64,000 bases of DNA from Candidatus Krumholzibacteriota bacterium (lineage in GTDB: Bacteria > Krumholzibacteriota > Krumholzibacteriia > JAJRXK01), in NCBI GenBank assembly GCA_963806035.1, contig CAWDWO010000007.1, positions 36,973 through 100,972 of the forward strand, read 5' to 3'. Of this stretch, positions 14,670 through 47,046 are shown piece by piece (the stretch's first letter is position 1; every line of letters begins with the position of its first letter). The translations under genes and the position numbers were made by a program. Under the pieces are notes generated by a model, which was not told the origin of the DNA, did no database searches, and saw nothing but the letters and a program-made list of their open reading frames with translations.

Positions 14670-15424
14670 CGCGCTTCCCTCCCCTCTGGCCGGGCAAGTT
14701 CCAGCGCGAGATAGGGTCCCGCATCGATACTCGACACCAGAGGGAACGCGAGCGCGAGATTGAGTGAGGAAAATCGCAGTCCCAGATGCAGGCTGCCCCC
14801 CCTTGCGTCACCCCGGTACGCGAGCGAAAGCGGAGCGAGCAGCAGCTCGAGACCCGCGCTCCAAATGCCTCGCTCCTCGAAAGGGGAGTCCTCTCGCATG
14901 AGCGCCGCCGCCCAAGCGCTTCCTTCCAGCTCGAATACGTATGCGGCGCTCGAGGGAAGTCGAACACCTTCATGCTCCAGAGGAAATTCCTGCTCGATAC
15001 CGAAAGCGAAGCCGCGCGCCGTGAGCACTAGAGCCAGTTCACCCCGCGAACTCAGCTCGCTGGCGATCGTCTCCACCTCTCTCTTCTGGCGCTGCACTCG
15101 GGCGTGCACGCGGAACCCGGTCCCGGTGAATCGAAACCCCAGTCCCAGCTCCTGCTCGGAATAGGCTGCCGCGCGCAGCTGGCCGGCAAGAGTCCAGACG
15201 AGAACGGAGGAACTCAGGCCGAAGGCTCCCTCCAACCAGCTCTGACTGGAGGGCGCGAAGCTGACCGGGTTTCCCGCACCCAAGCGCAAACGGGCAGAGG
15301 GTGCGCGCATCCAGCAATCGCCGGGCAGAGCTTCCATGCGCCTCGGACCCGAAAAGGTTTCGGCGTGTGCGCTGAGCTGAAGGATGAAGAGGAGGGCGAT
15401 GACGAGCAGCCCCGGCCACCTCAT
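14666..15424 (-). CDS. Hypothetical secreted protein (Gly/Ala-rich, possible outer-membrane barrel)
   Basis: I chose Met45 as start. This gives the signal peptide MRWPGLLVIALLFILQLSAHA and an ATGA overlap with the upstream gene's stop. The ORF-track start at 15556 is less likely. Overlaps the next gene's start by 4 nt. Confidence 0.45.
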   Translation of the reverse strand: MRWPGLLVIALLFILQLSAHAETFSGPRRMEALPGDCWMRAPSARLRLGAGNPVSFAPSSQSWLEGAFGLSSSVLVWTLAGQLRAAAYSEQELGLGFRFTGTGFRVHARVQRQKREVETIASELSSRGELALVLTARGFAFGIEQEFPLEHEGVRLPSSAAYVFELEGSAWAAALMREDSPFEERGIWSAGLELLLAPLSLAYRGDARGGSLHLGLRFSSLNLALAFPLVSSIDAGPYLALELARPEGREAR

Positions 15425-27500: not shown

Positions 27501-30500
27501 CCGCAGGTGCCGTGAACTCGGCCCCTGCTACCGTCCCCGTGACGCGCGCCACGAAGCGGTAGTTCCCCGGCGGGGTGGCACTCCCCACTCTGACTCGCGA
27601 AGAGAGATCACGCTGACCACCGGCCGCGACTGCTCCCAAGGGGTCCTGATCGACCAGGGTGAAATCCGCCGCCGGTGAGGACTGCAATGCCAGCTGCGAG
27701 ATTCCGACGGAACCCGCGCCGAGGTTTTCCACCGTGACGCGAACGTTGAGAGTATCCCCCGGTACCGCCTGCGTCTCGTGACTCACCGAGCGAATGGCAA
27801 GGCCGCTGACCAGAAACGAGCCCTGCGGAAGCACGATGAAGCTCGAAACTGCTTGCCCGTGCGTGTCCTGCCCCGCCAGTTGCAGCGTGGGCCGGAACGA
27901 GCCCAGAGCGAAACTCGCGGGGAGGGTCGCCGTGCTGAAATTGAGGACTTGGCTCGACGAGGCCGGCACCACGGTATCGCTGGGGAGCGAGGCGGCGAGG
28001 ACCCCTCCCTGTCCATCCTCGATCTTCAGTTGCGAGAGTCCAGCGTCCAGGATTGCGTCGACGCCCCCGGTATTCTGTAGCGTGATGCTGAAGTTTAGAT
28101 TCTGCCCCGGCACCGCGGCCGCGGGAGTGAGCGCGCCATCGAGCGCCAGTGAGGCAGGCGACACGAAGATCGCGTCCGCGCTGCCCATGGCGGCCGCGCT
28201 CGCGAAGGAGACGGTGACCGTTCCGGCAGTGAGAGGAGACGCCAGCCGCAGGCCCACCATTCCCGATCCGTCGCTCAGCCTTTGAATCCCGCTGCGCTGG
28301 GGATCGAGATCGTCGGAGATGATCGCTCCTCCGTTTGCGCTCACGTCCACTGAGCTTCCCGCCGCCACCACGTTTCCGAATGCGTCGCGAATCGGTCCCG
28401 CGCTCAGCCGCGTCACCGAGACCCCATTGGCCGTGTTCTCGCTCGGATCCACGATGGGCACCGGAATCGTTCCCGAGGGCGAAGCGGGAACCACCAAGAG
28501 ATTGTTCAGACTGCCCCCAACCGCGGGCAGGGCGGCCAGGCTCACGTCCAGGGTCAAGGGACCGGCCTGCTGGGCGCTGAGATCCACCGTGGCTTTCCCC
28601 GCCACCAGCGAAGCCGGAGAAGGTGTCACGCTCAGCACGGATGGACTCGAGTTGAACGCCAGCTCGCCCGCCAGGTCGACCTCGTTGCCCGCGGAGTCCC
28701 TGGCGACGATCGTGAGAGAGTTGGGAGTTCCCGCGGTGAGAAGCGTGTCGCTGATCGAAAGCTCGAGATGGTCCGCGGAGCCTGGCAGAGCCTCTACCGT
28801 CCAGCGAACGGTCTCCAGCGAGCCGGGCGTGCCGTCCAGGATGGAGGCGCCGACCCGGTGCTCTCCGCTGCTCGTGGAAAGATGGAGTACAAAGGACAGC
28901 TCTCCGTTGGCATCGGTCGAAGCGAGACCATCATCCGTGGGTACGCTGGGGTCTTCCAGACTCGCTCCCGAAGGAGCGCTCAAGAGACTCAGACGCACGG
29001 GAACCCCACTGACCGCATTGCCATAGCTGTCGGCGACTCGCGCGAGCAGCGTGACCGTCGTTCCGGCCGGCGCGCTCTGCAGCGTGTCACCCACGGCGCT
29101 GAGCCGGAAGGCGGCGCCCGCCGACACTTCGATCAAAGGGCTCTGGGCGTTGATTGAAGGCTGCGATTTCAGGCTTGCCGTGACGGAAAACTGCTCCACC
29201 AGGGTGTCCCGCGCACTGGCCGAGAGAAGGCCCGCGTTCAGCGCGCCTTCAGAGGGAGTCAGGACGATTCCGGTTCCGGTGGAACTCAGCTCGACGGAGT
29301 CCGCTGCCGCCAGCACCCGGTTGCCCGCTGCATCGAGGGCGGTGATCGTCAGGGGAAGAGCCTGACCCGCTATCACGCTGGTCTGCGAGGGAAGCACGGC
29401 GAGCGAGGCAATGGGTCCGGCCACGGTATTCACCACGAAAAGGACCGTCTCCCGCGCGACGGGACTGCCATCCAGAATTCCCACTCGCAGGCGCAGGGTC
29501 TGCACCGTCGAGTCGGTGAGTACAGTGAAAGTCGCATGGCCGTTGGCGTCGCTGCTTGCGGGGCCGGCCTGGAGTGTGCCTCCCTCCAGCTGCAGGACAT
29601 TCAGCGTCTGGTTGCCAACTGAGTTGCCCAAGGCATCCAGCACCTGCACCCCGAGGTCCACGCTCGAACCCGCGGTCACGCCGGACAGGGTATCCGCGCC
29701 CGTGCTCACCAGTTCGTAGGCACTGCCCGAGCCCACACTCAGAAGCGGACCCAGATAGCCCTTGCCCTTGGCGCTGAGACGAATGTGATAGCTTCCCGCG
29801 GTGTCGATGCGCTGCAGGGAAGTCGAAAAGCTTCCCCCGATGAGCTGACCCTCAGAGACGTTGAGCGGAAGCGGGACCACCACGGTGCTGTCCGCACCGT
29901 CGACCAGGTCGAAGGAAAAGCTGTCTGATGCGGCGCTGGCCAAATTTCCAAAGGCGTCGTACGCCGTTGCACTCAAGGAGAAGGGGGCTCCCGCGGTCGC
30001 GGTCGCGGGATAGGCGAGCTGATACTCAGCCACCATCGTGCCGGCCAAGATTTGCAGGCTCCCGCTATCTCCGTCCAAGAGCGCCGCCGAATCGTCCGCG
30101 CTGAAGGCGTGCGTACCGGCCAAACTTCCCTGGTAGTAGACCGTGGCCTGTCCGCTGACCGCGAGGTTCAGCGTATCGAGATACGGTCCGCCGCTCTGCG
30201 CCGAGAAAACCAGACCGGTCGCGGGATCTGCGTGCACGATGACGGTGGCCGAAGAGCTCGAACTCAGATTGGCGAAGCTATCCACCAGCGACAGCCCGAA
30301 GCTGCCTTCGACTCCAGCCTCGACCGCGCCCGCGGGCGGGGAGAGCCGAATCGCGCTCGCGTTCCCCACTACCGAGCTATAGACGAGATCGTTGACCGCG
30401 CCCGAGGAGACTTGACTCGAGCTAGCATCCAGAACGTCCTGAAGTCCGGCCGTGGAGGGCGCGCGGTACATCACGTGGATCAGCCCGTTCCCATCGGTCA

Positions 30501-33075
30501 AGCCGCGCTGCGTGGCCAGACCGAGAGAATCCGTCTCTCCCACTCCGGAGAGAATCCCGTCCAGCAAATCGCTGGAAAACAAGGTCACCTCGGCGCCCGC
30601 TACTGGATTTCCATAGGAGTCGCTCGCCAAAGCCGCGACGAGTTCCGTGCCACCCACCACGAGGTTCCTCGGCCCGTTGGGTTGAAGGACGAGACTGCTC
30701 ATCGGACCCGCAGTGGCGATGGCGTTGAAGTTCACCGAAGGCGCGAAGGAAGATTCCGCTGACAGACTCTGGAGACCCGCCACCGTGCCCAACTCCCAGA
30801 GAGCACAGCTCGCGTATCCGAGCGAATCGCTCAGGGCCGTGTTCTGGTCGCCGGGAGTGAGAGGGTCCGTGTCCACACGTCCACCGTCGGCCAAAATGAA
30901 CTGCACGGTGGCTCCGCTCACTGGATTGCCAAAGGCATCCAGCGCGCGCGTCCGCAGAGCTTGCGCGACGGCAGTCCCCACGGTGGCGCTCTGTCCGTCT
31001 CCCGCGGTCAGCTGCAGATCGCTTGCGGGCGCTGCGAGGAAGCTCAGATCCGCGCTGCCGGATGCCGATCCGTCGCTGAGGATGACTGTCAGATCCTCCG
31101 CCAGCGTGTTGGTGAGTTGCAGCTCGACTCTTCCCGAATCGGCCGCTGCGAAGCTGTAGTCCGCCTCGCCGCCGGGCAGAGGAGTCAGGCTTCCCGCGCC
31201 GCTGCTGGCCCAGTTCAGATTGCTCCCGTCGCCCGAACTCGAACTCGAAAGGTGCACCGTGCCGCCGTAGTTACCCACGCGATTTCCCGTGGCATCCAAC
31301 GCGTCCGCGCGAATTGCGAGGGCCGTTCCCGCGCTTCCGATGGCGCCTGCCGGCAGGCTCAACGCAAAATGGTCCAGTGGCCCGGCTACGAATTCCAGAT
31401 TCAGTGGGGGACCTACCGGCAAGCCGTCGAGGCTCGCCTGTGCTGTTCCCGCGCCGGGGGTGGTGGAGCGCAAGCTCGCATGAAACTGTCCCGAGGCATC
31501 GGTGCTCGCGTCCAGTTTTTCGAGCTGCCACGCGGCCGGGAGCGTGAAACCGATGCGACTCGAGTCGATGTTCGCTACGGCATTGCCGAAAGCATCCTCC
31601 ATACGCAGAAGCAAGCCGATGGTGTCGACTCCGTCGGCGACCGCGGAGGCATCGCCGGAGAGCGTGGTCGAGGAAGAATCGACGGAAGAGGCCGTGAACT
31701 CGACGAGGGGTTGGGAGCTGAGCGTCACGCCCGCGGCCGTTACGCTCACGGGCCTGACGCCAGCGCTCGTCGAACGAAGCCTTGCCGCGAATTTGCCGTC
31801 AGCCGCGCTCGATCCACTCAGCTTTTCCACTGCCACCGCACTGGAGCTGATCACGATCTGCGCGCTGTCGACGCCAGCCACTGCATTGTCGAAGGCATCG
31901 CGCAGGGTTGTCTGCAGGGTCGTGAAATCAGAGCCGTCGGCGAGCGCCGGCCCGGCAAGGACAGCCGTGGAATGATCGGGGTCCACCGGTCCCGCGCTGA
32001 AGTCGAGATCGAGAGTGTCGCTCAGCGCCACTCCGCCCACTGAAACCGCGAGACGGCGGGCCGATGCGACAGTGGTGCGCAGAAGCGTCGCGAAGGACCC
32101 ATCCAGGGCCGAGTTCGCCGCCTGCTTTTCGACGCTGAGCCCATCCCCCAATACCGTGAAAACGATGGAGGAGGAATCGACTTGCGAAACCGCGGTTCCG
32201 CCGCTGTCGCGAAGAACGAGATCCACTTGGATAGCGTCGACACCGTCGGCCACGGCAGACGTGCCGCCACTCAGACTGGATTGTACCGGGTCGACTGCTC
32301 GTGGTGTGAAGATCACGGTGGGGTGAGTGTCGAGCGTCGAGCCGTCCACGACCGCATCCAGGCTCCAAGAGCCCGCCAGAAGCGTTCTGACTCGCAGGGG
32401 AAAGCTGCCGTCGGCCGCGCTGGCCGCTGTCGGCTTCTCGACCGAATAAGCGGGAGCTGACAGTGCAACCGAAATGCGCGCGCTGTCCACCCCGGCAATC
32501 GTGTTCCCGAACGCGTCGCGCAGAATCAGAGTGACCGAGCTGAAGGCGCTCCCGTCGGCCACTACCGGAGAAGTCGCACTCACGGAGCTCTGCTGAGAAT
32601 CGACTGCGGCGGGAATCAGGGTGATGGTGGTTTGATCGAAACCCAAGTCCGGAGCCGCGGAAGATCCGTCGACCACGGTGAGCCCGACCGGCAGCGAGTT
32701 GAGGTGGGTGGCGCGAAACAGGAGGTCCACTCCGGAGGAATCGGCGGCAATGCTCGCTGAACTCACCGCGGGACCCCCCACGAAGCGGTGATAGCTTCCG
32801 GAGGAGTTGTCGCTGAAGAGGTCGATCACCTGTGAGGCGGACACCGGCGAGGGATCACCGGTACTGTCCACGCTGAGGACCCGAATGGGCAGGTACTCCC
32901 CCGCGGTCGCCGTGTCCGAGGAGGTCTGGATCATCAGCGCGGATGGGGGTTGCGCGGCAAGGGAGGCGCGGGGCAGAAGCACACAGAAGCACACCGTGCT
33001 GAGGAGCAGGGAAACTCGTCTCAACGGTGCGAGACGATCGTGAATGCGCGTGAGTGGTCCCGGCATGGTGTTCAT
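24523..33075 (-). CDS. Giant (2850 aa) secreted adhesin-like protein with tandem Big_1-type Ig-like repeats, CARDB-like repeats and a C-terminal T9SS sorting domain
   Basis: Signal peptide ...LLLSTVCFCVLLPRASLAA. At least four ~100-aa repeats carry V(A)DG.D...L.LRDAFGN.V..VDS..I (invasin/intimin Big_1-like). Multiple (V/L).(V/L).N.G.a segments are CARDB-like. The C-terminal YPNPFVPSREPATLSYSLPQSGPVEIEIFDLLGKRV...GVYICRV is the T9SS CTD signature. Confidence 0.8.
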   Translation of the reverse strand: MNTMPGPLTRIHDRLAPLRRVSLLLSTVCFCVLLPRASLAAQPPSALMIQTSSDTATAGEYLPIRVLSVDSTGDPSPVSASQVIDLFSDNSSGSYHRFVGGPAVSSASIAADSSGVDLLFRATHLNSLPVGLTVVDGSSAAPDLGFDQTTITLIPAAVDSQQSSVSATSPVVADGSAFSSVTLILRDAFGNTIAGVDSARISVALSAPAYSVEKPTAASAADGSFPLRVRTLLAGSWSLDAVVDGSTLDTHPTVIFTPRAVDPVQSSLSGGTSAVADGVDAIQVDLVLRDSGGTAVSQVDSSSIVFTVLGDGLSVEKQAANSALDGSFATLLRTTVASARRLAVSVGGVALSDTLDLDFSAGPVDPDHSTAVLAGPALADGSDFTTLQTTLRDAFDNAVAGVDSAQIVISSSAVAVEKLSGSSAADGKFAARLRSTSAGVRPVSVTAAGVTLSSQPLVEFTASSVDSSSTTLSGDASAVADGVDTIGLLLRMEDAFGNAVANIDSSRIGFTLPAAWQLEKLDASTDASGQFHASLRSTTPGAGTAQASLDGLPVGPPLNLEFVAGPLDHFALSLPAGAIGSAGTALAIRADALDATGNRVGNYGGTVHLSSSSSGDGSNLNWASSGAGSLTPLPGGEADYSFAAADSGRVELQLTNTLAEDLTVILSDGSASGSADLSFLAAPASDLQLTAGDGQSATVGTAVAQALRTRALDAFGNPVSGATVQFILADGGRVDTDPLTPGDQNTALSDSLGYASCALWELGTVAGLQSLSAESSFAPSVNFNAIATAGPMSSLVLQPNGPRNLVVGGTELVAALASDSYGNPVAGAEVTLFSSDLLDGILSGVGETDSLGLATQRGLTDGNGLIHVMYRAPSTAGLQDVLDASSSQVSSGAVNDLVYSSVVGNASAIRLSPPAGAVEAGVEGSFGLSLVDSFANLSSSSSATVIVHADPATGLVFSAQSGGPYLDTLNLAVSGQATVYYQGSLAGTHAFSADDSAALLDGDSGSLQILAGTMVAEYQLAYPATATAGAPFSLSATAYDAFGNLASAASDSFSFDLVDGADSTVVVPLPLNVSEGQLIGGSFSTSLQRIDTAGSYHIRLSAKGKGYLGPLLSVGSGSAYELVSTGADTLSGVTAGSSVDLGVQVLDALGNSVGNQTLNVLQLEGGTLQAGPASSDANGHATFTVLTDSTVQTLRLRVGILDGSPVARETVLFVVNTVAGPIASLAVLPSQTSVIAGQALPLTITALDAAGNRVLAAADSVELSSTGTGIVLTPSEGALNAGLLSASARDTLVEQFSVTASLKSQPSINAQSPLIEVSAGAAFRLSAVGDTLQSAPAGTTVTLLARVADSYGNAVSGVPVRLSLLSAPSGASLEDPSVPTDDGLASTDANGELSFVLHLSTSSGEHRVGASILDGTPGSLETVRWTVEALPGSADHLELSISDTLLTAGTPNSLTIVARDSAGNEVDLAGELAFNSSPSVLSVTPSPASLVAGKATVDLSAQQAGPLTLDVSLAALPAVGGSLNNLLVVPASPSGTIPVPIVDPSENTANGVSVTRLSAGPIRDAFGNVVAAGSSVDVSANGGAIISDDLDPQRSGIQRLSDGSGMVGLRLASPLTAGTVTVSFASAAAMGSADAIFVSPASLALDGALTPAAAVPGQNLNFSITLQNTGGVDAILDAGLSQLKIEDGQGGVLAASLPSDTVVPASSSQVLNFSTATLPASFALGSFRPTLQLAGQDTHGQAVSSFIVLPQGSFLVSGLAIRSVSHETQAVPGDTLNVRVTVENLGAGSVGISQLALQSSPAADFTLVDQDPLGAVAAGGQRDLSSRVRVGSATPPGNYRFVARVTGTVAGAEFTAPADSSATPLSVSSASQLELVDKSVTPSRIHHGANLLLKARVKNNGGATVSLNAASSFASFGGGLWSGALSSSLALAPGQEAELSFGPTTVDAALGSQSQDLQLHLAGTENSFPFSADLIQVDAISTETPADLVLAATPLDPAAALRGSTVGFKLSLTNQGEAQLVLDPLTTRLDFGEPQGARIGAVLDPLSPASVPTGTTQLAFSPLALPSDLILGTPQGYLRVRGTQNGLPFDSDLPLPNGTLTLFDPAGLRILSTTALNPSAPLSQVNTRQHIGVRVVVGNNAGEAIDSLTVRLAGSATPASSAADISVPRLESSEIDTLYFDTSITTTPGPESLRALIVRALSSTTQQEIVPQSPLDDLANLQVQRPVSLSFRAELVDSVDPLAMSVSPGQIFSVRFAVDQDASVQQSGSWLPVEVDFNSLQGFTLDSQSTLPVQLDPSNPEATIRLVAPSTVQTVDLVAALSRVDLDANDPDARPLTSASSRTLQLEVFGGTAFDTCSLSIISPQGAQDTVLSTGQTFTLQGEVDGPANLQQRSLELLLPPQLALVGGNARQMLTDGQTTVNWQVLCPNTPAAGLLLRTVAHATDVQSSSVLADTCASVNLQVVEAAHAVPRLTILEPNSARDRGELPPGAVVELHGNFVLSGSAQTLPPARLHLSVPSGFSILDGKTASVDLVDPSDEVVWRLQGPTSLDLGVQKITLTAEQIPLDENSGLPAGEATAESSVALSILADPLRLEISDLSDTGPLIGSDRIYERFAVHISNGHPEAVHFTQLALNLVDDAGQPFANPSSFLQTIQVRRTDGTQNWSAAVNGNPVIVPVDLVIDSDSSAAFRVGVQAKADADYVSFRFALDGGSASILDSGGFALSYALLDEEGGGHSLILAGPSVTAKASSEFDAHSYPNPFVPSREPATLSYSLPQSGPVEIEIFDLLGKRVRQWSFAAGSSQAEPGIHDGDVLWDGRNGLGQEVRNGVYICRVRAAGGEIYFRIAVTR
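31395..32625 (-). repeat. Tandem intragenic repeats (~300 nt units encoding Big_1-like Ig domains) within the giant adhesin gene
   Basis: Four consecutive protein repeats recur, with a shared DNA core such as gtcgaca/ctccgtcggc(c/g)ac(g/c)gc roughly every 300 nt. They are diverged and the coordinates are approximate. Confidence 0.5.
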
Positions 33076-33813: not shown

Positions 33814-36456
<2,643 letters not shown>

Positions 36457-36521: not shown

Positions 36522-36624
36522 GCCCATCGCTAAAAGTGCCAGCGATGATAGGTTGCTGGTCGCGGAGTGTCAAAGTCCTCGACAGAGGCGAAAACGAAGG
36601 AGTGGAGGCCCCGGGCGCTGAGGA

Positions 36625-39048
36625 TCAGCGGATGATCGTCAGCTTTCCTACCCGCTCCCCTCCCTTTGCGTTGGTGATTCTCCAGATATACACGCCACTG
36701 ACGACCTCTCGGCCCTTGGAATTCTTGGTGTCCCAGACGATGGTCCCACGCTGTTCACCGCTCACGACCTCGTTGCTCAACTCCGTCACGAGGTCCCCGG
36801 CCAAGGTGAAGATTTCCGCCTTGGAGTTCAGCGACACGTTGACGAAGTGGATCGAGGAGCCACCCGTTTCGTCCCAACCCGCGTTCCGTCGGAGTGGATT
36901 GGGGACGACCCAGATCTTCGAGAGATCGGGAGAGACCTTCTTGCTGACGGTGAATACCGTGTTGTTGTAGTTGCCCGGGAGAATGTGGTTCTGTGCCTGC
37001 GGCGATGACTCGTATTCCGAACGGGGCGAGAACTCCATGTCCCGATCCAGACCGCGCGGGCTGACGTCGCCGGTGAATCCATAGTCGAAGGTGCTCACCG
37101 CGTAGTGGTAGGTGAAACCATCGTAAATGTCTCGATCGAAGAAGCTCACACGGCCGCCCGGATCATCGAAATTGAAGCAGTTCGCGCGCTTGTCCGCGAA
37201 ACAACCGGGGATGATCCGCGGATTCACCGCGTCGCAGGGAGTCGAGTAACAAAACTCTGGATTATTGAGGTCATAGAGACCGATCAGCTCCCAGAGGGGC
37301 TCCTTGCTGTTGGATACGAACTTCACCGAGCGCCACACTGCGTAGCCCTGGAAGGTCTGCGCCCGTATCGTGAAGGTGTCGCCCGGGCGCAACAATCCGT
37401 TGCTGTCCGCGGTATCGGCGATCATGAACCTCACGGTGAGGCCGATGTCGGCATTGCGCAGATCTTGATCCGATGCGGTCACGTCGACGGTGTCGGTGAG
37501 GGGAATCGGCGCCCCCTCCTCGTAGATCCCTCCACCTCGGCTGGCCAAGAGCAGTTCCCCGGCCCGCGCCGGATTGTAGATCAAGTCTCCCACCTGTAAA
37601 GTAACCGGCGCCACGGTGAGTTCATCATAAAGACGTGTCCAGAGCTGGCCGCCATCGACCGAGTGCAGGATGCCGCTCTCCGGAGTGGTCATGAAGAACT
37701 CACTGGCATTCGACGGGTTCTGGATGATTTTTCGCAGGGAAGGAACGAGACCGTTGGTTCCCTGCGGCAAGAACGCGGTGGAATCCGACCAGCTCAGGCC
37801 GCCATCATTGCTGACGAACAGTCCTCTGGTGGACGAGGCTGCGAGGAGCCGCTGCGGATTGTTGCTGTCGAGAATCAGACTGCGAACGCTCACCTTGCGT
37901 CCCGAGGGATATTGGGCATTGGCACCGATGACCATGCCTTGATCCCTGCGCTCCCAGCTGTCGCCGCCGTCGGTCGTCGCGTAGACGCCCCAGTTCTGCA
38001 GAGCTACGTAGATGAGATTGGGGTCATTTGGAGAACTCACCACGTCATAGACTTGGGGTAGCGCTACTTGGGCGGAATCGGGGCTCGTCGCCGTGGGGCG
38101 AGGCACGAGGAGGGACGAAATGAGAGTCCAGTTGTCGCCGTTGTCCGTGCTCTCGAAGAAGCCCAGCCCGTTGATGGAAAGGAAGAGGCGTCCGGTCTTC
38201 TTGTCGTACCTGATCAAGCTGATCTCTTGCTTACCGCTCGAAATGTTCCGGGCGATACGCACGAAGTTCGCCCCGGCGTCCGTGGACCGATAGAGGCCGT
38301 CCGTCGATCCCACGAAGATGCGATCGGGATTGTCCGGATCCACCGCGATCGAGGAACCCGTAGCGCTCGGATTCTTCAGTTGATCGAGAATGGGATCGTT
38401 CGGCGAACTCAGAGTCACACTCCAGCTCGAGCCACCGTCATCACTGCGCAGCACGGGAATTCCCGGAATGACGACGTAGAGGCGGGTGCTGCCCTGACCA
38501 TCGGACCAAGTGCCGATCGCCTCGACGTTAGTCCGGCTCAGTGACTTGGGAATCCCCTGATTCGCCTGGCTGGCGACTCCCGAGTTGAGATCGATCTGGA
38601 AGACGCCGCCGGAGTTGGAGAGATTCAAGGAGCCCTGGAGAAAGCCTTCGGTTACCGAGGTGCTCTTCCAGATCACCGAGAGCAAGTCCACGGTGGGGTC
38701 GCCCACCGTCCCTCGATTCACGACCGTGAAGACGATATCCCGGTCCGAGTCCAGTTTGTAGGTCCCTTCCACCGTGGGCTCGAATTCCGTCAGATTATCG
38801 GCGCCCGTCAGGGTATAACAGGCGGTGCTGTCAGCGGACTCCGGTTGCCAACTGATTCGATTGCCTTCGACCGGCGCAGCCTGGAAATCGATGGTGAGAT
38901 CCAGTGGCGACCGCAACAGCAAGAAGTCCTGACAGTCACCCTGTGCGCTGGCTACGCTCGGAGCCATTAAAAGGCAGAGTGCGCCGATGAACGTCAGGGC
39001 CGAATGTCGGGCTCGGGGAAACGTGAGGTGCTTGCTTCTCTTCACCGA
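36625..39048 (-). CDS. Secreted BNR/Asp-box repeat protein (sortilin/Vps10- or glycosidase-like beta-propeller) with C-terminal T9SS sorting domain
   Basis: Several Asp-box motifs S.DGG.SW (SDDGGSSWSV, TTDGGDSWER, SNDGGLSWSD, SVDGGQLWTR). The signal peptide ends ...LLMAPSVASAQG. The C-terminal ...GVYIWRITNAKGGERVGKLTIIR is a CTD-like strand pattern. Start approximated at the internal V/K-rich n-region; the ORF-track start is 39126. Confidence 0.7.
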   Translation of the reverse strand, partial: SVKRSKHLTFPRARHSALTFIGALCLLMAPSVASAQGDCQDFLLLRSPLDLTIDFQAAPVEGNRISWQPESADSTACYTLTGADNLTEFEPTVEGTYKLDSDRDIVFTVVNRGTVGDPTVDLLSVIWKSTSVTEGFLQGSLNLSNSGGVFQIDLNSGVASQANQGIPKSLSRTNVEAIGTWSDGQGSTRLYVVIPGIPVLRSDDGGSSWSVTLSSPNDPILDQLKNPSATGSSIAVDPDNPDRIFVGSTDGLYRSTDAGANFVRIARNISSGKQEISLIRYDKKTGRLFLSINGLGFFESTDNGDNWTLISSLLVPRPTATSPDSAQVALPQVYDVVSSPNDPNLIYVALQNWGVYATTDGGDSWERRDQGMVIGANAQYPSGRKVSVRSLILDSNNPQRLLAASSTRGLFVSNDGGLSWSDSTAFLPQGTNGLVPSLRKIIQNPSNASEFFMTTPESGILHSVDGGQLWTRLYDELTVAPVTLQVGDLIYNPARAGELLLASRGGGIYEEGAPIPLTDTVDVTASDQDLRNADIGLTVRFMIADTADSNGLLRPGDTFTIRAQTFQGYAVWRSVKFVSNSKEPLWELIGLYDLNNPEFCYSTPCDAVNPRIIPGCFADKRANCFNFDDPGGRVSFFDRDIYDGFTYHYAVSTFDYGFTGDVSPRGLDRDMEFSPRSEYESSPQAQNHILPGNYNNTVFTVSKKVSPDLSKIWVVPNPLRRNAGWDETGGSSIHFVNVSLNSKAEIFTLAGDLVTELSNEVVSGEQRGTIVWDTKNSKGREVVSGVYIWRITNAKGGERVGKLTIIR

Positions 39049-39064
39049 TCCATCTTCCTCGGGT

Positions 39065-41404
39065 TTAATTCGTAACGTTGATGTTCCAGTTCTGCCCGAT
39101 GATCCAGAGCAGAGCGGTTTCCACATTGTCCAGGTCGAAAGCCAGGGGATTGAATCCCCAGAGGAAGTCCTGCGAGCCCGGCAACTGCTTGTACGGCGAG
39201 TACACGTTGCTGACGATACCGACCGCCGCCCCGTCGATAGGGGAATCCTCTCGGCCGTAGGGCTGGCATGAAGTCTTGGCGTTTGGAATGATCGGATCCC
39301 CCGCCAGGGCCGTGCCGGCAGGCCAGACCTCGTCCCTCGCCGCGCGATGTAGGTACATGGCCATCTGGCAGTCCCGCGGGATGAGAGTGACTTCCCTCTT
39401 GGGAGCGATGTTACGGTTGTAGAACTCTTCCCACTGGTAGCGATAGAAGGCCAGATCCTTGGGATAGTTGTTCGACTGGGGAAGCCTCGGTGAATCGGCC
39501 TTCGTCACGAGATCCTGCACGACACCTTGCGCGCTGGGATACTGCTCCAAGAAGTCCGGATCAACTTCAGCCCTGAACAGATAATCGCAACGCAGGGTGC
39601 TGGTGAGCTCAGCGCCACCGCCTTCACCGGTCCGGCCGTCGCTGACGGGCCGCACCCAGTCGCTCGCATCCAGGCACCAGCCGGTATAGGGCCAGCGCTC
39701 AGTCCCGGCCGGGGTACACGCCCCCTCGTTGGAGAAAGCGGAACAGCCCAGTCCGAGCGGTAACCTCTCCTCGGTATTGTAGACCACGGGGAATTCCACC
39801 GCGAGGTTCTCGATCATGCCCAGACTGGCATAGGGTCCCACGAAGAGAACGTTGCCGATCTTGGACTGATAGACCTCGAGCCAGTTGTATCTCGGTCCGG
39901 CCGTCGTGGGACGCAGTTTAGTGGCGAAGCCCGTGTTGGCACTTTTCCCCTGCACAAACCAGATCACCGACTTATAGCGGTTGATCAGACGGAAATCGAC
40001 GTCCTGTCCCCTGACGTAGTCCACTGAGGGATCGAAGCTCGAAACCTTCCCTGCCAGCATGCTCTCCCATTGTGAACGCCAGGTGATGGCAGGCTCTTGA
40101 TCCTGAGGAAGGTCGTAGTCAGTGACGAAGAGCAGATCCAGCTGCTGCGAGCGCGGAGTGATCTGAACCACTTCGAACTGAAAGGTCCCTCGCGTGATCG
40201 CGCCAGAATTGTCCCGGCACTGCACGACGAAGTTCGGACTACCCTGCTGGAAGGTCCGGGTCGAAGCACGTAGATAGCTGGTCCCACTGCCCCAGGGTAC
40301 CGCCCAACCGGGGTCATCCGGGTCGTTTACGTCCTGGATCTCCCAGCCGAAACGGTAGGCATCGATGATGCCGGCGTAGTCGGAGGCGTCCGCGGTCCAG
40401 CTGAAGTTGAGCGGTTGTCCCGCTGCGATCTCGTAGGTTTTCAGCAGATTGGGACCATTGAACGCCGAGTTCCCCAGGAACTTCTCGGTCACCGACAATG
40501 TCGGCGCCTTCCCCGGTGAAATTCGTACATGACGAACGTTGGTGTTCCATTCCAGGGTGGGAGTGACCGCCCCCGCCACGTCCTTGGCCTGTACCGCGAA
40601 GAAGAACGACTCCCCGACATCCTTGACGGGGAAGGTGACAACCCTCCCGCTGTCCTCGGGCGCGTCATACGCGATCCAATCGCTCCAGTGTCCATTGAAG
40701 ATCTTGGCCGGATCGATGGTCTGGTAGATGAACCGGGTCAGGCAGGTATCCGGACCCAACGCGGGTTCCATCACGTCGCGCGTGTTGACCAGCGCATAGC
40801 GAACCGCCGCCGGATCGCTGGCAACGTTATCCGGGTCGTCGCCTTCCCAGCCGAAGGTCAATGCGCGCGCGGAGGACACACAGTCGATCGTACCCTTGGA
40901 CTTGGGAAGGGTGATGGTGATGGTCGGCGAAAGGGTCGTGGCAGTGAAGGAAACCATCGCCGGCGTTTCGTCCGCCACGCCCAAGTTATCCACCGCACGC
41001 ACGAAAAAGGTATGCGTTTGCCAGTAACGGAAATCCTTGGGATCGGTGATCTGGGGGTTGTCGACATCGGTCTGGAACAATGCGATATCCGCGCTCACCG
41101 AGAAGGTGGAATCGGTCACGACGGTGGAGTGCCACGGCAGACCGAGAGTGTCCGCCTGGTCCACGATGCCGTCCTGGCCGTTGTCGCTGATGCGCCACTC
41201 GAAGTGGTCGACCCAGCCGTCATTGTCCAGCCCGGTCCAGTAGAACTGCACCGTGAAAGAGGTCTGTTCGAGAGCGGGCGGTGTTGCCGTCACTCGGGTG
41301 TCGGGCGGTTGGTTTGCCGTTACTTCGCCCGTGATACCGCTTTGGCAGGCGGTGATCCCCACCGCCAACGCGAGCGATAGAGCGATCCAGATCAGATTCT
41401 TCAT
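39065..41404 (-). CDS. Large hypothetical lipoprotein A (paralog of the adjacent gene)
   Basis: Lipobox MKNLIWIALSLALAVGITAC. About 780 aa of beta-rich sequence with repeated F.W.G.D.D.(G)W modules. The N-terminal ~130 aa align with the downstream paralog (PPDT.VT..P...F...W.G.D.DG.V..F ... F.VRAVD..G..D.TPA). Confidence 0.6.
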   Translation of the reverse strand: MKNLIWIALSLALAVGITACQSGITGEVTANQPPDTRVTATPPALEQTSFTVQFYWTGLDNDGWVDHFEWRISDNGQDGIVDQADTLGLPWHSTVVTDSTFSVSADIALFQTDVDNPQITDPKDFRYWQTHTFFVRAVDNLGVADETPAMVSFTATTLSPTITITLPKSKGTIDCVSSARALTFGWEGDDPDNVASDPAAVRYALVNTRDVMEPALGPDTCLTRFIYQTIDPAKIFNGHWSDWIAYDAPEDSGRVVTFPVKDVGESFFFAVQAKDVAGAVTPTLEWNTNVRHVRISPGKAPTLSVTEKFLGNSAFNGPNLLKTYEIAAGQPLNFSWTADASDYAGIIDAYRFGWEIQDVNDPDDPGWAVPWGSGTSYLRASTRTFQQGSPNFVVQCRDNSGAITRGTFQFEVVQITPRSQQLDLLFVTDYDLPQDQEPAITWRSQWESMLAGKVSSFDPSVDYVRGQDVDFRLINRYKSVIWFVQGKSANTGFATKLRPTTAGPRYNWLEVYQSKIGNVLFVGPYASLGMIENLAVEFPVVYNTEERLPLGLGCSAFSNEGACTPAGTERWPYTGWCLDASDWVRPVSDGRTGEGGGAELTSTLRCDYLFRAEVDPDFLEQYPSAQGVVQDLVTKADSPRLPQSNNYPKDLAFYRYQWEEFYNRNIAPKREVTLIPRDCQMAMYLHRAARDEVWPAGTALAGDPIIPNAKTSCQPYGREDSPIDGAAVGIVSNVYSPYKQLPGSQDFLWGFNPLAFDLDNVETALLWIIGQNWNINVTN

Positions 41405-41490
41405 TGCACCCCTCCCGCACTGGGCAGGCAAGATCGTTTCTCGGGGGTCGGGATTCGTTTTCGCGAGATGGCGAGGCCTCCGCTCGACGC

Positions 41491-43725
41491 TCATTCGTCC
41501 GGCATATAGTTGTCCGGCGGCCAGAGCTGGGTGATCACGCCGGTGGCTCCCGGATCCAATCCGAGATATGCCGAATAGGTTCTCGAGACGATGCTCGTAC
41601 GCCGTCCCTTGTCGGACATCGGCACCTTGGTCGTGTTGTCACCACAGCTCTCTCTCACGGTGAGAAAGCAATACGGAAAGACCTGACCGGCTTTGGCCGT
41701 TTTTCCCTGAACCCTCAGGTGAATTCTTCCGAGCTGCCTTGCCAGCACGACTCCCAACTCGTAATACGGTCCCTCGGTTCCGGTGTCCGGGTTGATCTTC
41801 GCGAAGAGATTCGGGAAACGCCAGAGGAGGTCGGGTACGAAGATCTCGACTCCCTTGCCAGGCACCCCGGCGCTCATTTCCCAGTAATTGCTCGTTCCCG
41901 GAGAGTCCCAGCGACCGAACACGTCGCGTCCCGCCCCCTCTTTCTCCTGATTCAAGGGGTCGTATTCGCTCGCGAGTTGATAGGTCCAGGACTCCACCGA
42001 ACCCTCCGGCTCGCGCGCATCCGCCCGCCCCTCGAATCGCACCGTGTAGCGAATGATCTTCCCCTGCACCACGAACGCACTGTCATTCGGCTTGGTGGCG
42101 GAGAAGACGTACTTCGAGCCGTCCCAATAACGCAAGGTACCCGAGGGCGTGTTGTCGGAATTGGCCGTGTAGTCCACGGTGTTCGAGGGCCAACGTTGCG
42201 ACAGGAAAGTCGGATCCTTGATCACCAGACTGTCGGTGTTCGCCGGCGAGACCGAGGTGAGAACCGGAATGAAACCCGCCACGAAGTTGAAAGTGGGGGG
42301 CGTCGGGTCCTTGCGCAGGAGCTCGTCCTCGGCGCGGAAGGACATGGAGTAGTCGAAGGGTCCCACGTGAAAGCCCAGCGTGTCCGCACGTTCGGCGGGA
42401 CTGTAGGAGGACTTCCAGAAGTAATTCGCTCCGCGGTCGTTCGTCGCGCGGGCGTCCTCGATCCTGGTCTGGTAGCTGACCTCGCTATCGGGATTGGAGC
42501 TCAAGTTCGGGTAGTCGCAGCAAGGCAGGCCCGCGAGCAGGGGATCGTTCCGATTGCGCTCGAAGCGATCGACTCCTCGCTGTTTGAACTGCACGTACGC
42601 CTTGTCCGGTACCGTGTCCCCTTCGCTGAAATTGATCCAGTTGACGCCGTCGGTCGTGTACCGCGGCCACTGCGAATCCTTGATCAGCTCGGTCTCGGGC
42701 GGATAATTGACGTTGTACCTCAACTCTCCCGAGAGAGCCGTGCTCTGCACCAGAGCTTCATCCAGCGCCGCCACCTTCAACAGATGGAAGCCGGAGGCCC
42801 ACATGCGCAGTTCGGGACAGTCGCCCCAACCCGAATTGCAGCCCGCCGGGAGGTTGTTCGGATCGATTTCTTCGTCGTTCTGGTAGTCGAAGCAGGTGGT
42901 GTCCAACGACCAGCTCTCGACTTCACGGCCCAGATCGGGATCGTAAGTCGTCGGATAGAACAGGGCGTCCTGCAGGTCCGACGCTTTATAACGATATCCG
43001 GTGATGGCGCCGTTGGGCGATGAGGCTTCCCAGCAGATGCGGAAGTGATTGGCGAAACCGATGAAGGGTTCCTCAGTCGTCTCCGGCGAGATCAGGTTTG
43101 GATCGGGGGCCCAGGGCCATATCACGTTTCCTGCGAGCTTCGGACCGTCCGGGGTTCCCACCCAACGTTCCGTCTCCTGCCCGGATTCATCGATGGTAGT
43201 TACGCGGAAGCGAATGACCGGATTCCCCAGGCTGTTGTTGAAGAAGTGCAAGCGCGCGGGAGTGGGATCGATCGCTCCCCTGTCGTCCACCGCGACGATG
43301 TGGAAAGTGATGTCCTTGGAAGTGTTGGATTCTCGGTCGATGGTGAAGACGAAGACCGAATCGGTCTTGGAGGTATAACCGACCACCCTCCCGTCGGTCT
43401 GCCTCAGGGTGAGCGCGTCGTCGGCGGGATCGAAGCGCTGATCTTCCTCATCCACGTCCGGCCTCGTCAAGTCGCGCACCGTCGAATCGGTGATGGCGAA
43501 GATGAACTTCACCACCTCCCCGTCCACGTCGTTACCGTACCAATACATGTGGCGGTTGAAGACCGTACCGGTAGTCTCCGCCGGCGCTCCCGTCACGAAG
43601 GTGTCCGGTGGAATGTTGACGATGATCGGTTCGGGGTCGAAGGCCCGGCACCCGTAGAAGACCACGAGAAAAAGCAGCAGCAACAGCGCCGCGGAGGCAA
43701 ATCTCGATTCGATTCGGCGTACCAT
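41491..43725 (-). CDS. Large hypothetical lipoprotein B (paralog of lipoprotein A)
   Basis: Signal peptide/lipobox MVRRIESRFASAALLLLLFLVVFYGC. 744 aa, beta-rich with many Trp/Tyr/Asp/Pro residues. The N-terminal domain is homologous to lipoprotein A. Confidence 0.6.
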   Translation of the reverse strand: MVRRIESRFASAALLLLLFLVVFYGCRAFDPEPIIVNIPPDTFVTGAPAETTGTVFNRHMYWYGNDVDGEVVKFIFAITDSTVRDLTRPDVDEEDQRFDPADDALTLRQTDGRVVGYTSKTDSVFVFTIDRESNTSKDITFHIVAVDDRGAIDPTPARLHFFNNSLGNPVIRFRVTTIDESGQETERWVGTPDGPKLAGNVIWPWAPDPNLISPETTEEPFIGFANHFRICWEASSPNGAITGYRYKASDLQDALFYPTTYDPDLGREVESWSLDTTCFDYQNDEEIDPNNLPAGCNSGWGDCPELRMWASGFHLLKVAALDEALVQSTALSGELRYNVNYPPETELIKDSQWPRYTTDGVNWINFSEGDTVPDKAYVQFKQRGVDRFERNRNDPLLAGLPCCDYPNLSSNPDSEVSYQTRIEDARATNDRGANYFWKSSYSPAERADTLGFHVGPFDYSMSFRAEDELLRKDPTPPTFNFVAGFIPVLTSVSPANTDSLVIKDPTFLSQRWPSNTVDYTANSDNTPSGTLRYWDGSKYVFSATKPNDSAFVVQGKIIRYTVRFEGRADAREPEGSVESWTYQLASEYDPLNQEKEGAGRDVFGRWDSPGTSNYWEMSAGVPGKGVEIFVPDLLWRFPNLFAKINPDTGTEGPYYELGVVLARQLGRIHLRVQGKTAKAGQVFPYCFLTVRESCGDNTTKVPMSDKGRRTSIVSRTYSAYLGLDPGATGVITQLWPPDNYMPDE

Positions 43726-43854
43726 AGACTTCCCCGAGCCCCTTGGCTATGACCCCAGCAAAGGGAGCAATTCTAGACTCTTCGACTCACCAATCCGCCA
43801 CCCGGTGGGGCCTGGGTGCGTACAATTCGCGGACTTCCGACTTAAGCCGCTGGA

Positions 43855-43884
43855 AATATAGGGCTTCGCCAGCGTCACTGTCAA
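43855..43884 (-). promoter_or_regulatory. Sigma-70-like promoter (TTGACA-18 nt-TATATT) upstream of the lipoprotein B / lipoprotein A / BNR operon
   Basis: Read on the minus strand: TTGACAgtgacgctggcgaagcccTATATT. The -35 element is at 43879-43884 and the -10 at 43855-43860. It is ~130 nt upstream of the lipoprotein B start codon, in a 269-nt intergenic region. Confidence 0.45.
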
Positions 43885-43994: not shown

Positions 43995-46169
43995 TCAATT
44001 GGCCGGAAGCCGGCTGAGATCGGCGAAGCGCGCAAAAAGGTAGTGCAGGGACTCGAGCCAATCCAGGCGCCGCGCCCGCAGAGCGGGATCGGGCGCATTG
44101 ACCAGGACTTCGACGAAGTAGCGATCGATGGGCTGCCCGAGGGTCGCCAAGGACTCATAGGCCAGAGTGTAGTCGCTCGCAGCGAGCGCTTTCTCGAGCT
44201 GCGGCAGAATCTGCTGAGCCGCTTCGACCAGCTTCTGCTCGGCCTCGTCCTCCTGCTCTTTGGCGCGGTAGCTCTTCAGCTCACCCTTCTCCCAGCGCGA
44301 CCGTGACTCGCGCTGCAGCGCCTGCGCCCGCTCCTGGGGCTCGAGAGATTCCTCCGCAAGCCGGTCCGCCTTCACCAGGATGTTGCGGCACCGTCGCGCC
44401 CCTTCGATGAGCATCTGAAAGGTCTCGCTCCCCTGGAGTTTGGCCAGGTCCTCGCTGGCGCGGGCGTTCTCGACCGGATCCAGCGGGAAGACCGAGAGCA
44501 CCGCCTGTACGATCTCGGCTGGAAGTTCCTGAAGGAGGGTTTCCAGCCGACCCCAGAAGAGGCCGGTGATCACCGAGGCAGCCTTCTGCACCGTCTCCCG
44601 TGGTTGCGAATAGTTCCGCAGGCTCTTGTCGATCCAGCCCGTGAGATCACACCGCAATTCGTTCTGGCTCAAAATGCGCAGGATCGCCAGGGCCTGACGC
44701 CGAAGCGCATAGGGATCCTGACTTCCGGTGGGAATGAAGCCGGCGAGCACACAACCTGCGAGGGTGTCGAGGCGATCGGCCAGGGCCACCACCTGGCCCA
44801 GCTCACCCTCGGGAAGCCTGTCGTCCGCAAAACGGGGATAGAGGTGTTCGGCGATCGCGTCCGCGACATCCTCGTCCTCCCCTGCGGCCAGGGCGTAATA
44901 GCGCCCCATGACCCCCTGCAGCTTGGTGAACTCCTTACCGTCCTTGATCATCTCGGTGGCCAGATCGCTCTTGGACAAGAGCCCGGCGCGATGGACCTTC
45001 TCCCGGGGCAGATTCGGCATGAGAGCTTCTGCGAGTTCACAGGCGAGTCCCGCCACGCGATGGCACTTGTCACCCACCGAACCAAAGCCCTCGATCCAGA
45101 CGACGGAGCCCAATCGACGCAGTTTTTCTTCGCTGCTCTGCGCCTTGTCCTCGTTCCAGTAGAAGACCGCATCTTCCAGACGGGCGCGCAACACGCGTTC
45201 ATTCCCTTCCTTCACGTTCTTTCGGCCTTCGTCCGCGCCGTCTCGAAAGGTGAGGAAGTGCGGGAGAAGCGCGCCCTCGCTCGACTCCACGCTGAAGTAG
45301 CGCTGATGGGCGCGCATGGCGGTGATGATGACTTCCCGCGGCAGAACTTGGGTCATGGCCGGGTCGAAATCACCGCGCACCCCGCGGGGGTGCTCAGCCA
45401 GGTACACCAGCTCTTGCAGAAGTTCGCCGTCCTCGTGAACGCGACCTCCGATTTCTTCGGCCAGCTGTCCAGCCTCGCTTTCGATGAGCTTCCGCCGCCG
45501 AGATGGGCGGACGATGACCGAAGCTTCGGCCAGGCAGGCCTCGTAGGACTTGGCATCGGGCAACTCTACCCGCCCCCCATGCAGAGTGCGATGTCCGCGG
45601 GTCTCGCGGCCGGCCCGAAGCGGAGTCAGCTGCAAGGGCACGAGCTCCTCGCCCAAAAGACAGACCAGCCAACGAATGGGCCGCGCGTAACTCAGGTCGT
45701 TGCCGGGAATCCAGCGCATGGTCTTGGGGAAACCCAGATTCACGAGGCGGCGCAGGAGCCCTCCCTCTTGCAAGAGATCCAGGGTTCGTTCGCCGCCGAG
45801 TTCGAGTTCGATGCCCAAGCGCTCGCCCTTTTCCTGCGGGATGCGCCGCAGGTCCTCGACTTTCACTCCCACACTGCGCGCGAATCCTTCGGCTGCCTTG
45901 GTCGGCTTTCCTTGCGCATCGAAGGCCGCGTTCACCGCGGGGCCCAGCTTCAGACTCTTGGTGCGCGGTGTCGCCAGTGCAACTTCATGAACCAATACGG
46001 CGATCCTGCGCGGAGTTGCGAAGGATTCCACCTTGTCTGCGGGAAAATCGATCCCCTTTTCCTTCAGAAAGGCGCTCACCCTCTCGACCAGAACTTTGCG
46101 AGCGCGATCGAGATAGCCGGCCGGGATTTCCTCACTGCCGATTTCCAGCAGAAACTCGCTTCTATCCAC
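43995..46169 (-). CDS. glyS: Glycine--tRNA ligase beta subunit
   Basis: The N-terminus [16 protein letters not shown] matches GlyS (E. coli MSEKTFLVEIGTEELPP). It ends with an anticodon-binding/DALR-like C-terminus. The start is a GTG at 46169, 2 nt after the glyQ stop. Confidence 0.9.
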
Positions 46170-47046
46170 GGCCCACCTTCTTGAGCAGGGGGAAACCCAT
46201 CTCTTCCCGCTTGGCGACATAGGCTTTCGCGGCCAGGCGGGCGAGTCTGCGCACCCGTGCGATATAACCCGTGCGCTCGGTGACGCTTATGGCGCCGCAA
46301 GCTTCCAAGAGGTTGAAATAGTGACTGCACTTGGTCACCGCATCGTAGCCGGGGAAGACCAGACCCTTTTCCAGAAGAATTTCCGCTTCCTTCTCCCGCT
46401 CCTCGAACCAACGAAAATAGAGTTTGGTGTCGACCCATTTGAAATTGAACTCGCTGAATTCACGCTCCGACTGGCCGTTCACCTCGCCCCAGGTAACGCC
46501 CCCTCCCCAATTCAGGTCCATGACGTGATTGCAGTCCTGGATGTACATGGCCAGGCGCAAAAGGCCGTAGGTGAGTTCGCAGCTCACCGGCTCCAGTTCC
46601 AATCCACCACACTGCTGGAAATAGGTGAACTGCGTGACTTCCATGCCGTCCAACCAGACTTCCCAGCCGAGCCCGGCCGCGCCCAGAGTCGGACTCTCCC
46701 AGTCGTCTTCCACGAAACGGACGTCGTGCGCTTTGGGATCGATTCCGATCGCGCTGAGACTGCTGAGATAGAGTTCTTGCACATCTTCCGGCGCCGGTTT
46801 GAGCAGCACCTGGTACTGCAGAAACTGCTGCACGCGATTCGGGTTTTCGCCGTAGCGGCCATCCTTGGGCCGCTTGGAGGGCTCGACGTAGGCAACGCGC
46901 CAGGGCTCGGGCCCCAGACACCGCAAGAAAGTGTTGGGATTGAATGTCCCCGCCCCCACCTCGGAGTTGTGGGGTTGCACGATGACGCAGCCCTGTGCCA
47001 TCCAGAACCGCTGCAGTTCGTGGATCATCTCCTGATAGCTTTTCAC
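46162..47046 (-). CDS. glyQ: Glycine--tRNA ligase alpha subunit
   Basis: 294 aa. [37 protein letters not shown] is near-canonical GlyQ. Confidence 0.95.

Follow-up and report, generated by a model that had tools for sequence, protein, structure and literature searches.

The described systems that come closest to the locus reported here are the paired lipoproteins GldJ, GldK and PorK, the lipoproteins SusE and SusF of Bacteroides, the Mfa and Fim type V pilus operons of Porphyromonas, the proteins PorZ and PorU of type IX secretion systems (T9SS), and bacterial α2-macroglobulin-like lipoproteins. The locus lies in a stretch of 64,000 nucleotides from a Candidatus Krumholzibacteriota bacterium (contig CAWDWO010000007.1, referred to here as the window; G+C content approximately 62%) and consists of three genes, which encode lipoprotein B, lipoprotein A and protein C, a β-propeller protein with a T9SS-type C-terminal domain (CTD). 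All coordinates given below are window positions on the minus strand unless a strand or another locus is named. Our data firmly indicate that B-A-C is a conserved operon for three extracytoplasmic proteins of undescribed families, found only in Krumholzibacteriota and Latescibacterota-type lineages. We further propose, with a probability of roughly 0.42, that its products form an abundant surface complex specific to this lineage, with the lipoproteins as partners of T9SS-exported proteins.

GldJ, GldK and PorK resemble this locus in that paired lipoproteins occur in a bacterium of the Fibrobacterota-Chlorobiota-Bacteroidota (FCB) group with T9SS-type cargo. The preliminary description of this DNA had drawn that analogy, while noting that A and B lack the signature of the formylglycine-generating enzyme (FGE)/sulfatase-modifying factor. 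The latter point was borne out, since neither protein matched Pfam or NCBIfam at E <= 0.1 and thus neither carries an FGE-sulfatase domain. The analogy itself did not hold: A and B have the lipoprotein signal, but they are built of FN3/Ig/macroglobulin-type β-sandwich arrays with an unrelated α/β domain in A, and no gldL/M/N (porL/M/N)-type neighbours flank B-A-C at four annotated loci (L001, L004, L006 and L008).

SusE and SusF are likewise two adjacent lipoproteins with an N-terminal Ig-like domain in common, tandem β-sandwiches and a secreted or surface enzyme-like neighbour. However, A has a unique α/β C-terminal domain, neither protein shows a sequence or Pfam relation to this pair (no match to SusE, PF14292, or SusF_SusE, PF16411), the annotated related loci have no TonB-dependent transporter or SusD genes, and B-A-C, with its consensus promoter, is kept in every related locus that we examined, unlike a substrate-specific utilisation locus. 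The Mfa and Fim operons, which combine lipoprotein pilins with the T9SS cargo Mfa5, share with our locus the presence of lipoproteins and a CTD protein in one operon, yet A and B are proteins of 5-7 domains and ~750 aa while the pilins have two domains. No Pfam match placed A or B among type V pilins, and for each model the 50 best Foldseek matches include no such pilin.

The likeness to PorZ and PorU lies in C, which joins a β-propeller to a CTD that is closer to the retained CTDs of these two proteins than to the generic sorting domain. C differs in having one BNR propeller, absent in distant lineages, instead of two seven-bladed ones, and no C25 peptidase domain, and its score against PorZ (NCBIfam NF052228) is 57.3 bits, from a CTD match only, where at least 260 are required. 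The α2-macroglobulin-like lipoproteins and complement macroglobulin (MG)-domain arrays provide the best Foldseek matches and are, like A and B, chains of FN3/MG-like β-sandwiches with a lipid anchor on the bacterial side. Membership is nevertheless ruled out by TM-scores of 0.11-0.16 (~10% identity) and the lack of a Pfam match; A and B are half as long and have no thioester, bait or receptor-binding domain. Our literature search on Krumholzibacteriota and type IX secretion returned nothing relevant, and nothing on A, B or C.

A conserved three-gene order behind an invariant promoter

The order of genes on the minus strand is glyS (43995-46220), B (41491-43725), A (39065-41404), C, ppdK (33814-36456) and a gene for a 2850-aa giant protein. 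We recovered A and B at the same positions as the preliminary description. B is an open reading frame (ORF) of 744 aa with a signal peptide and the lipobox FYGC (Cys26 at 43648-43650), followed by an all-β sandwich chain. A has 779 aa, a signal peptide and the lipobox ITAC (Cys20 at 41345-41347), and its start codon is the ATG at 41404, with the ribosome-binding site GGGAGGGG in front. The longest ORF of C spans 36625-39126, with an ATG at 39126, but the start is most plausibly the in-frame GTG at 39045, because GAGGAAG lies upstream of it and the signal peptide KRSKHLTF...SVASA|QGD downstream. From that GTG, C (36625-39045) has 806 aa and comprises a Sec signal peptide, an N-terminal region, a BNR/Asp-box propeller, an FN3-like domain and a T9SS-type CTD. 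All three genes are on the same strand, with 86 nt between the B stop and the A start and 19 nt between the A stop and the C start. The third gene had been placed 17 nt behind A; it does lie close downstream, but the distance counted from GTG 39045 is 19 nt. The mature proteins are acidic (pI 4.5-4.7) with 6-10 Cys in each, which fits an extracytoplasmic location. A shares 99% identity with a protein from a metagenome-assembled genome of Candidatus Krumholzibacteria, and the named homologues of A and B come from Krumholzibacteria in all cases.

Linkage was assessed from the gene tables of homologue-bearing contigs and by scanning a single genome for each GTDB species, with families mapped by local hidden Markov models (HMMs). 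We found that B, A and C are contiguous in 46 of the 49 distinct loci that carry B, and the other three loci are cut by contig ends. Together with the short gaps, this order substantiates the three-gene unit of the preliminary description. Most of the loci are labelled Krumholzibacteriota, several Latescibacteria or Latescibacterota and one UBP1; in the NCBI taxonomy, Latescibacterota belongs to the FCB group. The usual flanks are glyQS and ppdK, and at annotated orthologous loci (L001, L004, L006, L008) the triad has as neighbours glyQS, a CTD protein, ppdK, PatA_N and a giant CTD protein. The interval from C to ppdK may also hold further A paralogues or other insertions. Locus L063, on a Latescibacterota chromosome, has an A-C-A-A-A cluster, with only a very weak B-like ORF ahead of it, that adjoins nusG/rpoB instead of ppdK. 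In a close relative with a long contig (L013:7574-12010), B is split over several ORFs with an in-frame fusion to A, which probably reflects assembly frameshift errors.

B is preceded by a sigma-70-type promoter at 43855-43884, with the -35 hexamer TTGACA at 43884-43879, an 18-nt spacer and the -10 hexamer TATATT at 43860-43855. It matches the sigma-70 consensus at 11 of 12 positions, and its spacer falls within the 16-18 nt of such promoters. The preliminary description had called it the clearest such promoter in the window; the TTGACA-18-TATATT site is indeed present, but because the window holds two sites of 11/12 it is tied for clearest. The other is a promoter-like site, TTGACA-17-TATCAT, at 36545-36573, 50 nt past the C stop and ~90 nt ahead of ppdK, and it delimits the unit on the downstream side. 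The window and 38 related loci, 39 distinct sequences in all, contain the exact string TTGACA-N18-TATATT, once per locus and always directly upstream of B, with a spacer of 18 nt in every sequence. In the inspected sequences, Latescibacteria-labelled loci included, the coding region of B starts within ~160 nt 3' of the promoter. The site is kept down to ~30% protein identity, with conservation confined to the hexamers, their spacing and a few bases before the -10 element while the flanks diverge. The related loci, 1.43 Mb in total, contain 55 near-consensus sites, of which the B promoter accounts for 38; the ppdK site is conserved in 2 related loci only. Since the B promoter is kept while its flanks diverge, the comparison strongly suggests that it is functional and held by purifying selection, and expression from it would then be high and probably constitutive.

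The promoter and the start codon place a putative 5' untranslated leader of ~120 nt at 43726-43848, with a possible hairpin just ahead of a GGGG ribosome-binding site. RNAalifold on four close relatives found 2 compensatory pairs in this hairpin, which hints only weakly at a conserved structure, and an Rfam scan of the leader gave no match. The leader carries clade-specific conserved blocks. A CCCCAC motif, present in 16 of 39 related B leaders, might base-pair with the GGGG of the ribosome-binding site.

The lipoproteins A and B

The Cys of the lipobox is retained in all 66 B homologues and in 77 of 78 A homologues, so that the two genes passed the test of lipobox conservation named beforehand in the preliminary description. 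Taking as the mark of a bacterial lipoprotein a hydrophobic signal peptide that ends in [LVI][ASTVI][GAS]C and is conserved in orthologues, we predict that A and B are substrates of signal peptidase II and are lipidated. The ITAC of A is replaced by LAGC, VAGC or LSGC in homologues. The lipobox of B, F/L-Y/F-G-C, is atypical at -2, while its G-C is invariant; the junction L[YF]GC-RAF[DE]PE is nearly invariant, and the Arg at +2 is invariant.

The preliminary description had presented A and B as two paralogous lipoproteins. We found that this holds for an N-terminal module only: homology is limited to the ~135-160 residues after the lipid anchor, nothing else aligns, and A and B differ over the other ~75-80% of their length. 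Within the module, BLASTP gives 30% identity (E 2e-9), the family profiles align with a probability of 99.4% (hhalign, E 1.6e-21), and the local HMMs cross-hit as well, which confirms the homologous module claimed earlier. In B the module spans 43222-43629 (residues ~33-168) and carries W.G.D.DG and a VAVDD.G..D.TPA-type strand; in A it spans 40925-41323 (residues ~28-160) and carries FYWTGLDNDGWVD, a DxDGxxD-type loop that it has in common with B. Judging by its motif, this loop looks like a calcium site and probably binds calcium. The repeated F.W.G.D.D motifs reported earlier are found twice in A, but only once in B when the strict form [FYM].W.G.D.D is applied (A residues 54 and 184; B residue 60).

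The searches recovered 76 homologues of B and 111 of A, none with a precomputed Pfam domain. Against PDB sequences the B-family profile matched nothing, and the best match of the full A-family profile was the PKD domain of ColH, weakly similar to the N-terminal module of A at only E 0.021, which is not convincing. AlphaFold2 (AF2) models B entirely as β-sandwiches (predicted local distance difference test, pLDDT, 85.6; predicted template modelling score, pTM, 0.69) and A as β-sandwiches to residue ~415, followed by a 365-residue α/β domain (pLDDT 92.3; pTM 0.79). The middle region of A (40163-40924; residues ~161-414) comprises two to three further β-sandwich domains, judging from the AF2 secondary structure and the FN3/Ig arrays matched by Foldseek. 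Foldseek searches with full-length A and B against PDB, and with A against BFVD, returned FN3, Ig and macroglobulin-domain arrays only. Their TM-scores of 0.1-0.2 indicate generic β-sandwich repeat matches and not family membership. The preliminary description could name no family for either protein, and our Pfam, NCBIfam, PDB-sequence and Foldseek searches agree with it in giving no family match.

The C-terminal α/β domain of A (39068-40162; residues 415-779; pLDDT mostly >95) is rare, with 294 relatives among 1.84 billion representative proteins in an exhaustive HMMER search. A Pfam scan of 21 such domains at E <= 5 and a comparison of the domain profile with PDB sequences, permissive thresholds included, gave no match, and a further homologue search with the profile returned unannotated family members only. 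Among the listed PDB matches of full-length A (Foldseek, E <= 1.6e-6), no chain matched this domain. Across 219 relatives the conserved residues are D428, D429, W446, D462, Y477, W482, G517, G523, P539, D582, R602, E660, Y662, C679 and G750, a set that shows no nucleophile pattern of Ser, Cys or His. As a cluster of acidic and aromatic residues, it is compatible with a ligand-binding pocket or with a glycoside-type or hydrolytic one. We considered a class I glutamine-amidotransferase-like or ThuA-like fold on the basis of the β-α-β order (LLLVDD...YKxVIW...GNVLxxG), and we do not claim it.

Some relatives carry a FlgD_ig/Por_Secre_tail CTD after the domain, and one carries a proprotein-convertase P-domain (P0229, P0230, P0239, P0241, P0243, P0247 and P0222 are the relatives with a terminal CTD or, once, the P-domain). 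Since the domain is fused to a CTD in other proteins, it works beyond the cytoplasmic membrane, and the surface is its most likely site. The presence of the domain on lipoproteins as well as on CTD proteins suggests one domain delivered by two different routes.

Protein C and the cargo genes beside the A family

The propeller of C lies at approximately 37450-38530. Its translation contains five strict Asp-boxes (SxDxGxx[WF]) and a degenerate sixth, TTDGGDSW, and C scores 42.8 bits against Sortilin-Vps10, over the cutoff of 33. C therefore contains a BNR/Asp-box β-propeller of the sialidase/sortilin-like type, which bears out the earlier reading of the third gene as a BNR/Asp-box propeller protein; a T9SS CTD, the other part of that reading, is suggested by the matches described below. 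The propeller is not a core part of the unit: in distant lineages the gene at the position of C encodes ~450 aa that align to residues ~505-806 of C only. Its absence from these homologues marks the propeller as a clade-specific insertion that is dispensable. The conserved core (36628-37533) consists of an FN3-like 'GYAVWRS...DGFTYHYAVSTFD' domain and the CTD (about 36628-36939).

These features raise the question of whether the locus might serve in the capture and hydrolysis of surface glycans, as a SusE/SusF-like pair plus an enzyme, with A and B binding the glycan through Ig-like and PKD-like domains and the C-terminal domain of A or the propeller of C acting as glycosidase. Adjacent lipoproteins with a common N-terminal Ig-like domain and tandem β-sandwiches would fit such a unit, as would the acidic and aromatic cluster in A and the expansion of A paralogues. 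C also resembles BNR glycosyl hydrolases, with 3b7f as a match among PDB sequences (E 6.5e-10) and 87 bits against the F510_1955 glycosylhydrolase family, although the cutoff of that family is 175. We consider a glycan unit unlikely, since many lineages keep the triad while their C has no propeller, no SusC/SusD-type transporter, regulator or carbohydrate-active enzyme gene neighbours it in the loci examined, and no SusE, SusF or carbohydrate-binding module was matched in Pfam. Furthermore, a position among housekeeping genes behind an invariant consensus promoter is unlike that of substrate-induced utilisation loci.

The reading that we prefer, in which the lipoproteins partner T9SS-exported proteins, draws on the neighbours of the A family. 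A-family genes are multi-copy, and 77 of 109 have a directly adjacent CTD-bearing gene on the same strand; at loci without B this applies to 27 of 53, against a background density of 0.87 CTD ORFs per 10 kb. The CTD partners have no Pfam domain besides the CTD. Furthermore, a protein of ~1000-1100 aa, here called U, in which a FlgD_ig/Por_Secre_tail CTD alone is recognisable, is encoded between glyS and B in most lineages (~30 loci, for example L004:6669-9752, L008:549-3869 and L006:6015-9056). It is absent from the window, and in L014 (one genome) and in L067 it adjoins solo A paralogues. At a separate locus (L009:1-1676, minus strand), a PorU-like gene that combines Propeptide_C25, Peptidase_C25 and FlgD_ig is separated by ~8 kb from two distant A paralogues in tandem.

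Over its C-terminal ~100 aa, C aligns with the CTD part of two models, PorZ (E 1e-15; model positions 665-757) and PorU (E 2e-7; 29 bits, cutoff 420). For C-type CTDs in the short homologues, the CTD part of PorZ gives 32-45 bits, and the generic sorting-domain model gives C-type CTDs 16-22; other local cargo scores about equally on the two models. C orthologues have FlgD_ig at 19 bits and weak CHU_C or Por_Secre_tail matches. An HMM built from local CTDs scores C of the window at 108.7 bits and also finds the giant and the Lamin Tail Domain proteins of the window.

It could be argued from this CTD preference that B-A-C is an accessory or attachment module of the T9SS itself, with C as a PorZ-like surface component that retains its CTD and with A and B tethering or processing cargo. 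The presence of the triad in every B locus and a strong constitutive-type promoter would be expected of machinery, and A-family genes do neighbour CTD genes. We regard this as quite improbable: the PorZ score is far under its cutoff and comes from the CTD alone, the two propellers of PorZ are replaced by a single BNR propeller here and by none in distant lineages, and A and B are unlike any known T9SS component. Moreover, genomes hold several A paralogues paired with different cargo, which is more in keeping with cargo-specific partners than with core machinery.

Proposed role, neighbouring genes and meaning

We propose that the strongly selected sigma-70-type promoter drives B, A and C as a single operon. 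B and A would be lipid-anchored through their N-terminal Cys, and the acidic β-sandwich module next to the anchor would likely dock them to a common partner or to each other. B would continue as a rigid stalk of β-sandwich domains, whereas A would display the family-specific α/β domain, whose clustered, conserved Asp, Glu, Arg, Trp and Tyr residues resemble a ligand-binding or hydrolytic pocket. C would be exported through its CTD by the type IX pathway and be held or acted upon by the lipoproteins at the surface. A-family lipoproteins in general might be dedicated partners of T9SS-type cargo.

Several observations weigh against this proposal. glyQS and ppdK are almost as syntenic as B-A-C itself, so part of the linkage may reflect a generally conserved gene order. 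The CTD of C in the window is under the TIGR04183 cutoff (16.5 vs 23 bits) and under the Pfam cutoffs, and the PorU-like C25 gene of L009 is the only T9SS machinery-like gene seen, the T9SS core not having been searched for in the genome. A of the window has T428 and S602 at positions that are D in 92% and R in 89% of 219 family members, so that its putative pocket may be altered or not typical. The C-terminal domain of A may also have a known enzyme fold, as the structure search used full-length A only. Finally, co-transcription, surface location, complex formation, calcium binding, high abundance and a ligand are properties that we infer rather than observe.

We also weighed a location of A and B on the periplasmic side, as an envelope scaffold comparable to bacterial α2-macroglobulin lipoproteins and independent of C and of type IX secretion. 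The invariant Arg at +2 and the tether CRAF[DE]PE of B could act as a retention or sorting signal, and bacterial α2-macroglobulin and complement MG-domain arrays are among the top Foldseek matches; those matches are nevertheless generic repeats by their TM-scores (0.11-0.16), with no α2-macroglobulin, thioester or bait-region match in Pfam. The occurrence of the C-terminal domain of A on CTD-exported proteins and the strict linkage with a CTD protein likewise speak against a scaffold of this kind, which strikes us as rather improbable. That the three are unrelated envelope genes, adjacent only through a lineage-conserved gene order as the broad synteny with glyQS and ppdK might suggest, is very improbable, given that the triad persists with different flanks (L063) and with genes inserted on either side, that A and B have a domain in common, and that short same-strand gaps follow a single conserved promoter ahead of B.

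The window contains further genes of note. The giant protein (24523-33075, 2850 aa) carries a repeat of the DUF11 type together with a T9SS sorting domain that barely exceeds its cutoff (TIGR04183, 24.8 bits), and a homologue of it is also found downstream of ppdK in related loci. The third CTD-bearing protein of the window (15421-17058, 545 aa) matches the Lamin Tail Domain twice and has a CTD of the FlgD_ig type. An ORF of 940 aa (19992-22814) joins HATPase_c_2 (anti-sigma-factor-kinase-like), HAMP, SpoIIE/PP2C phosphatase and HTH_23/HTH_28 in an unusual fusion and is overlapped by an 838-aa ORF on the plus strand. Two long ORFs, 17135-19369 (744 aa) and 11410-12999 (529 aa), had no match in Pfam or to the A and B family HMMs.

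Krumholzibacteriota and Latescibacterota are uncultured phyla of the FCB group with essentially undescribed cell envelopes. What is new here is a strictly linked gene set with its promoter, two protein families, one rare domain and a statistical link between a lipoprotein family and T9SS cargo; we describe the whole as a gene cluster for predicted surface lipoproteins and T9SS cargo, made of two new protein families and one new domain. The invariant B promoter offers a usable strong promoter and a marker of highly expressed envelope genes in these two phyla. Should the lipoproteins prove to anchor or process exported proteins, they would reveal how proteins become attached to the surface after type IX secretion outside Bacteroidota. 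A wider possibility, which we regard as doubtful, is that B-A-C and the linked ~1000-aa CTD protein are the first example of a new envelope system, in which a dedicated lipoprotein family with the α/β domain captures, anchors or matures type-IX-exported proteins and B-A-C forms the major constitutive surface layer. If true, it would be an alternative to the lipopolysaccharide-linked PorU/PorZ attachment route of Bacteroidota.

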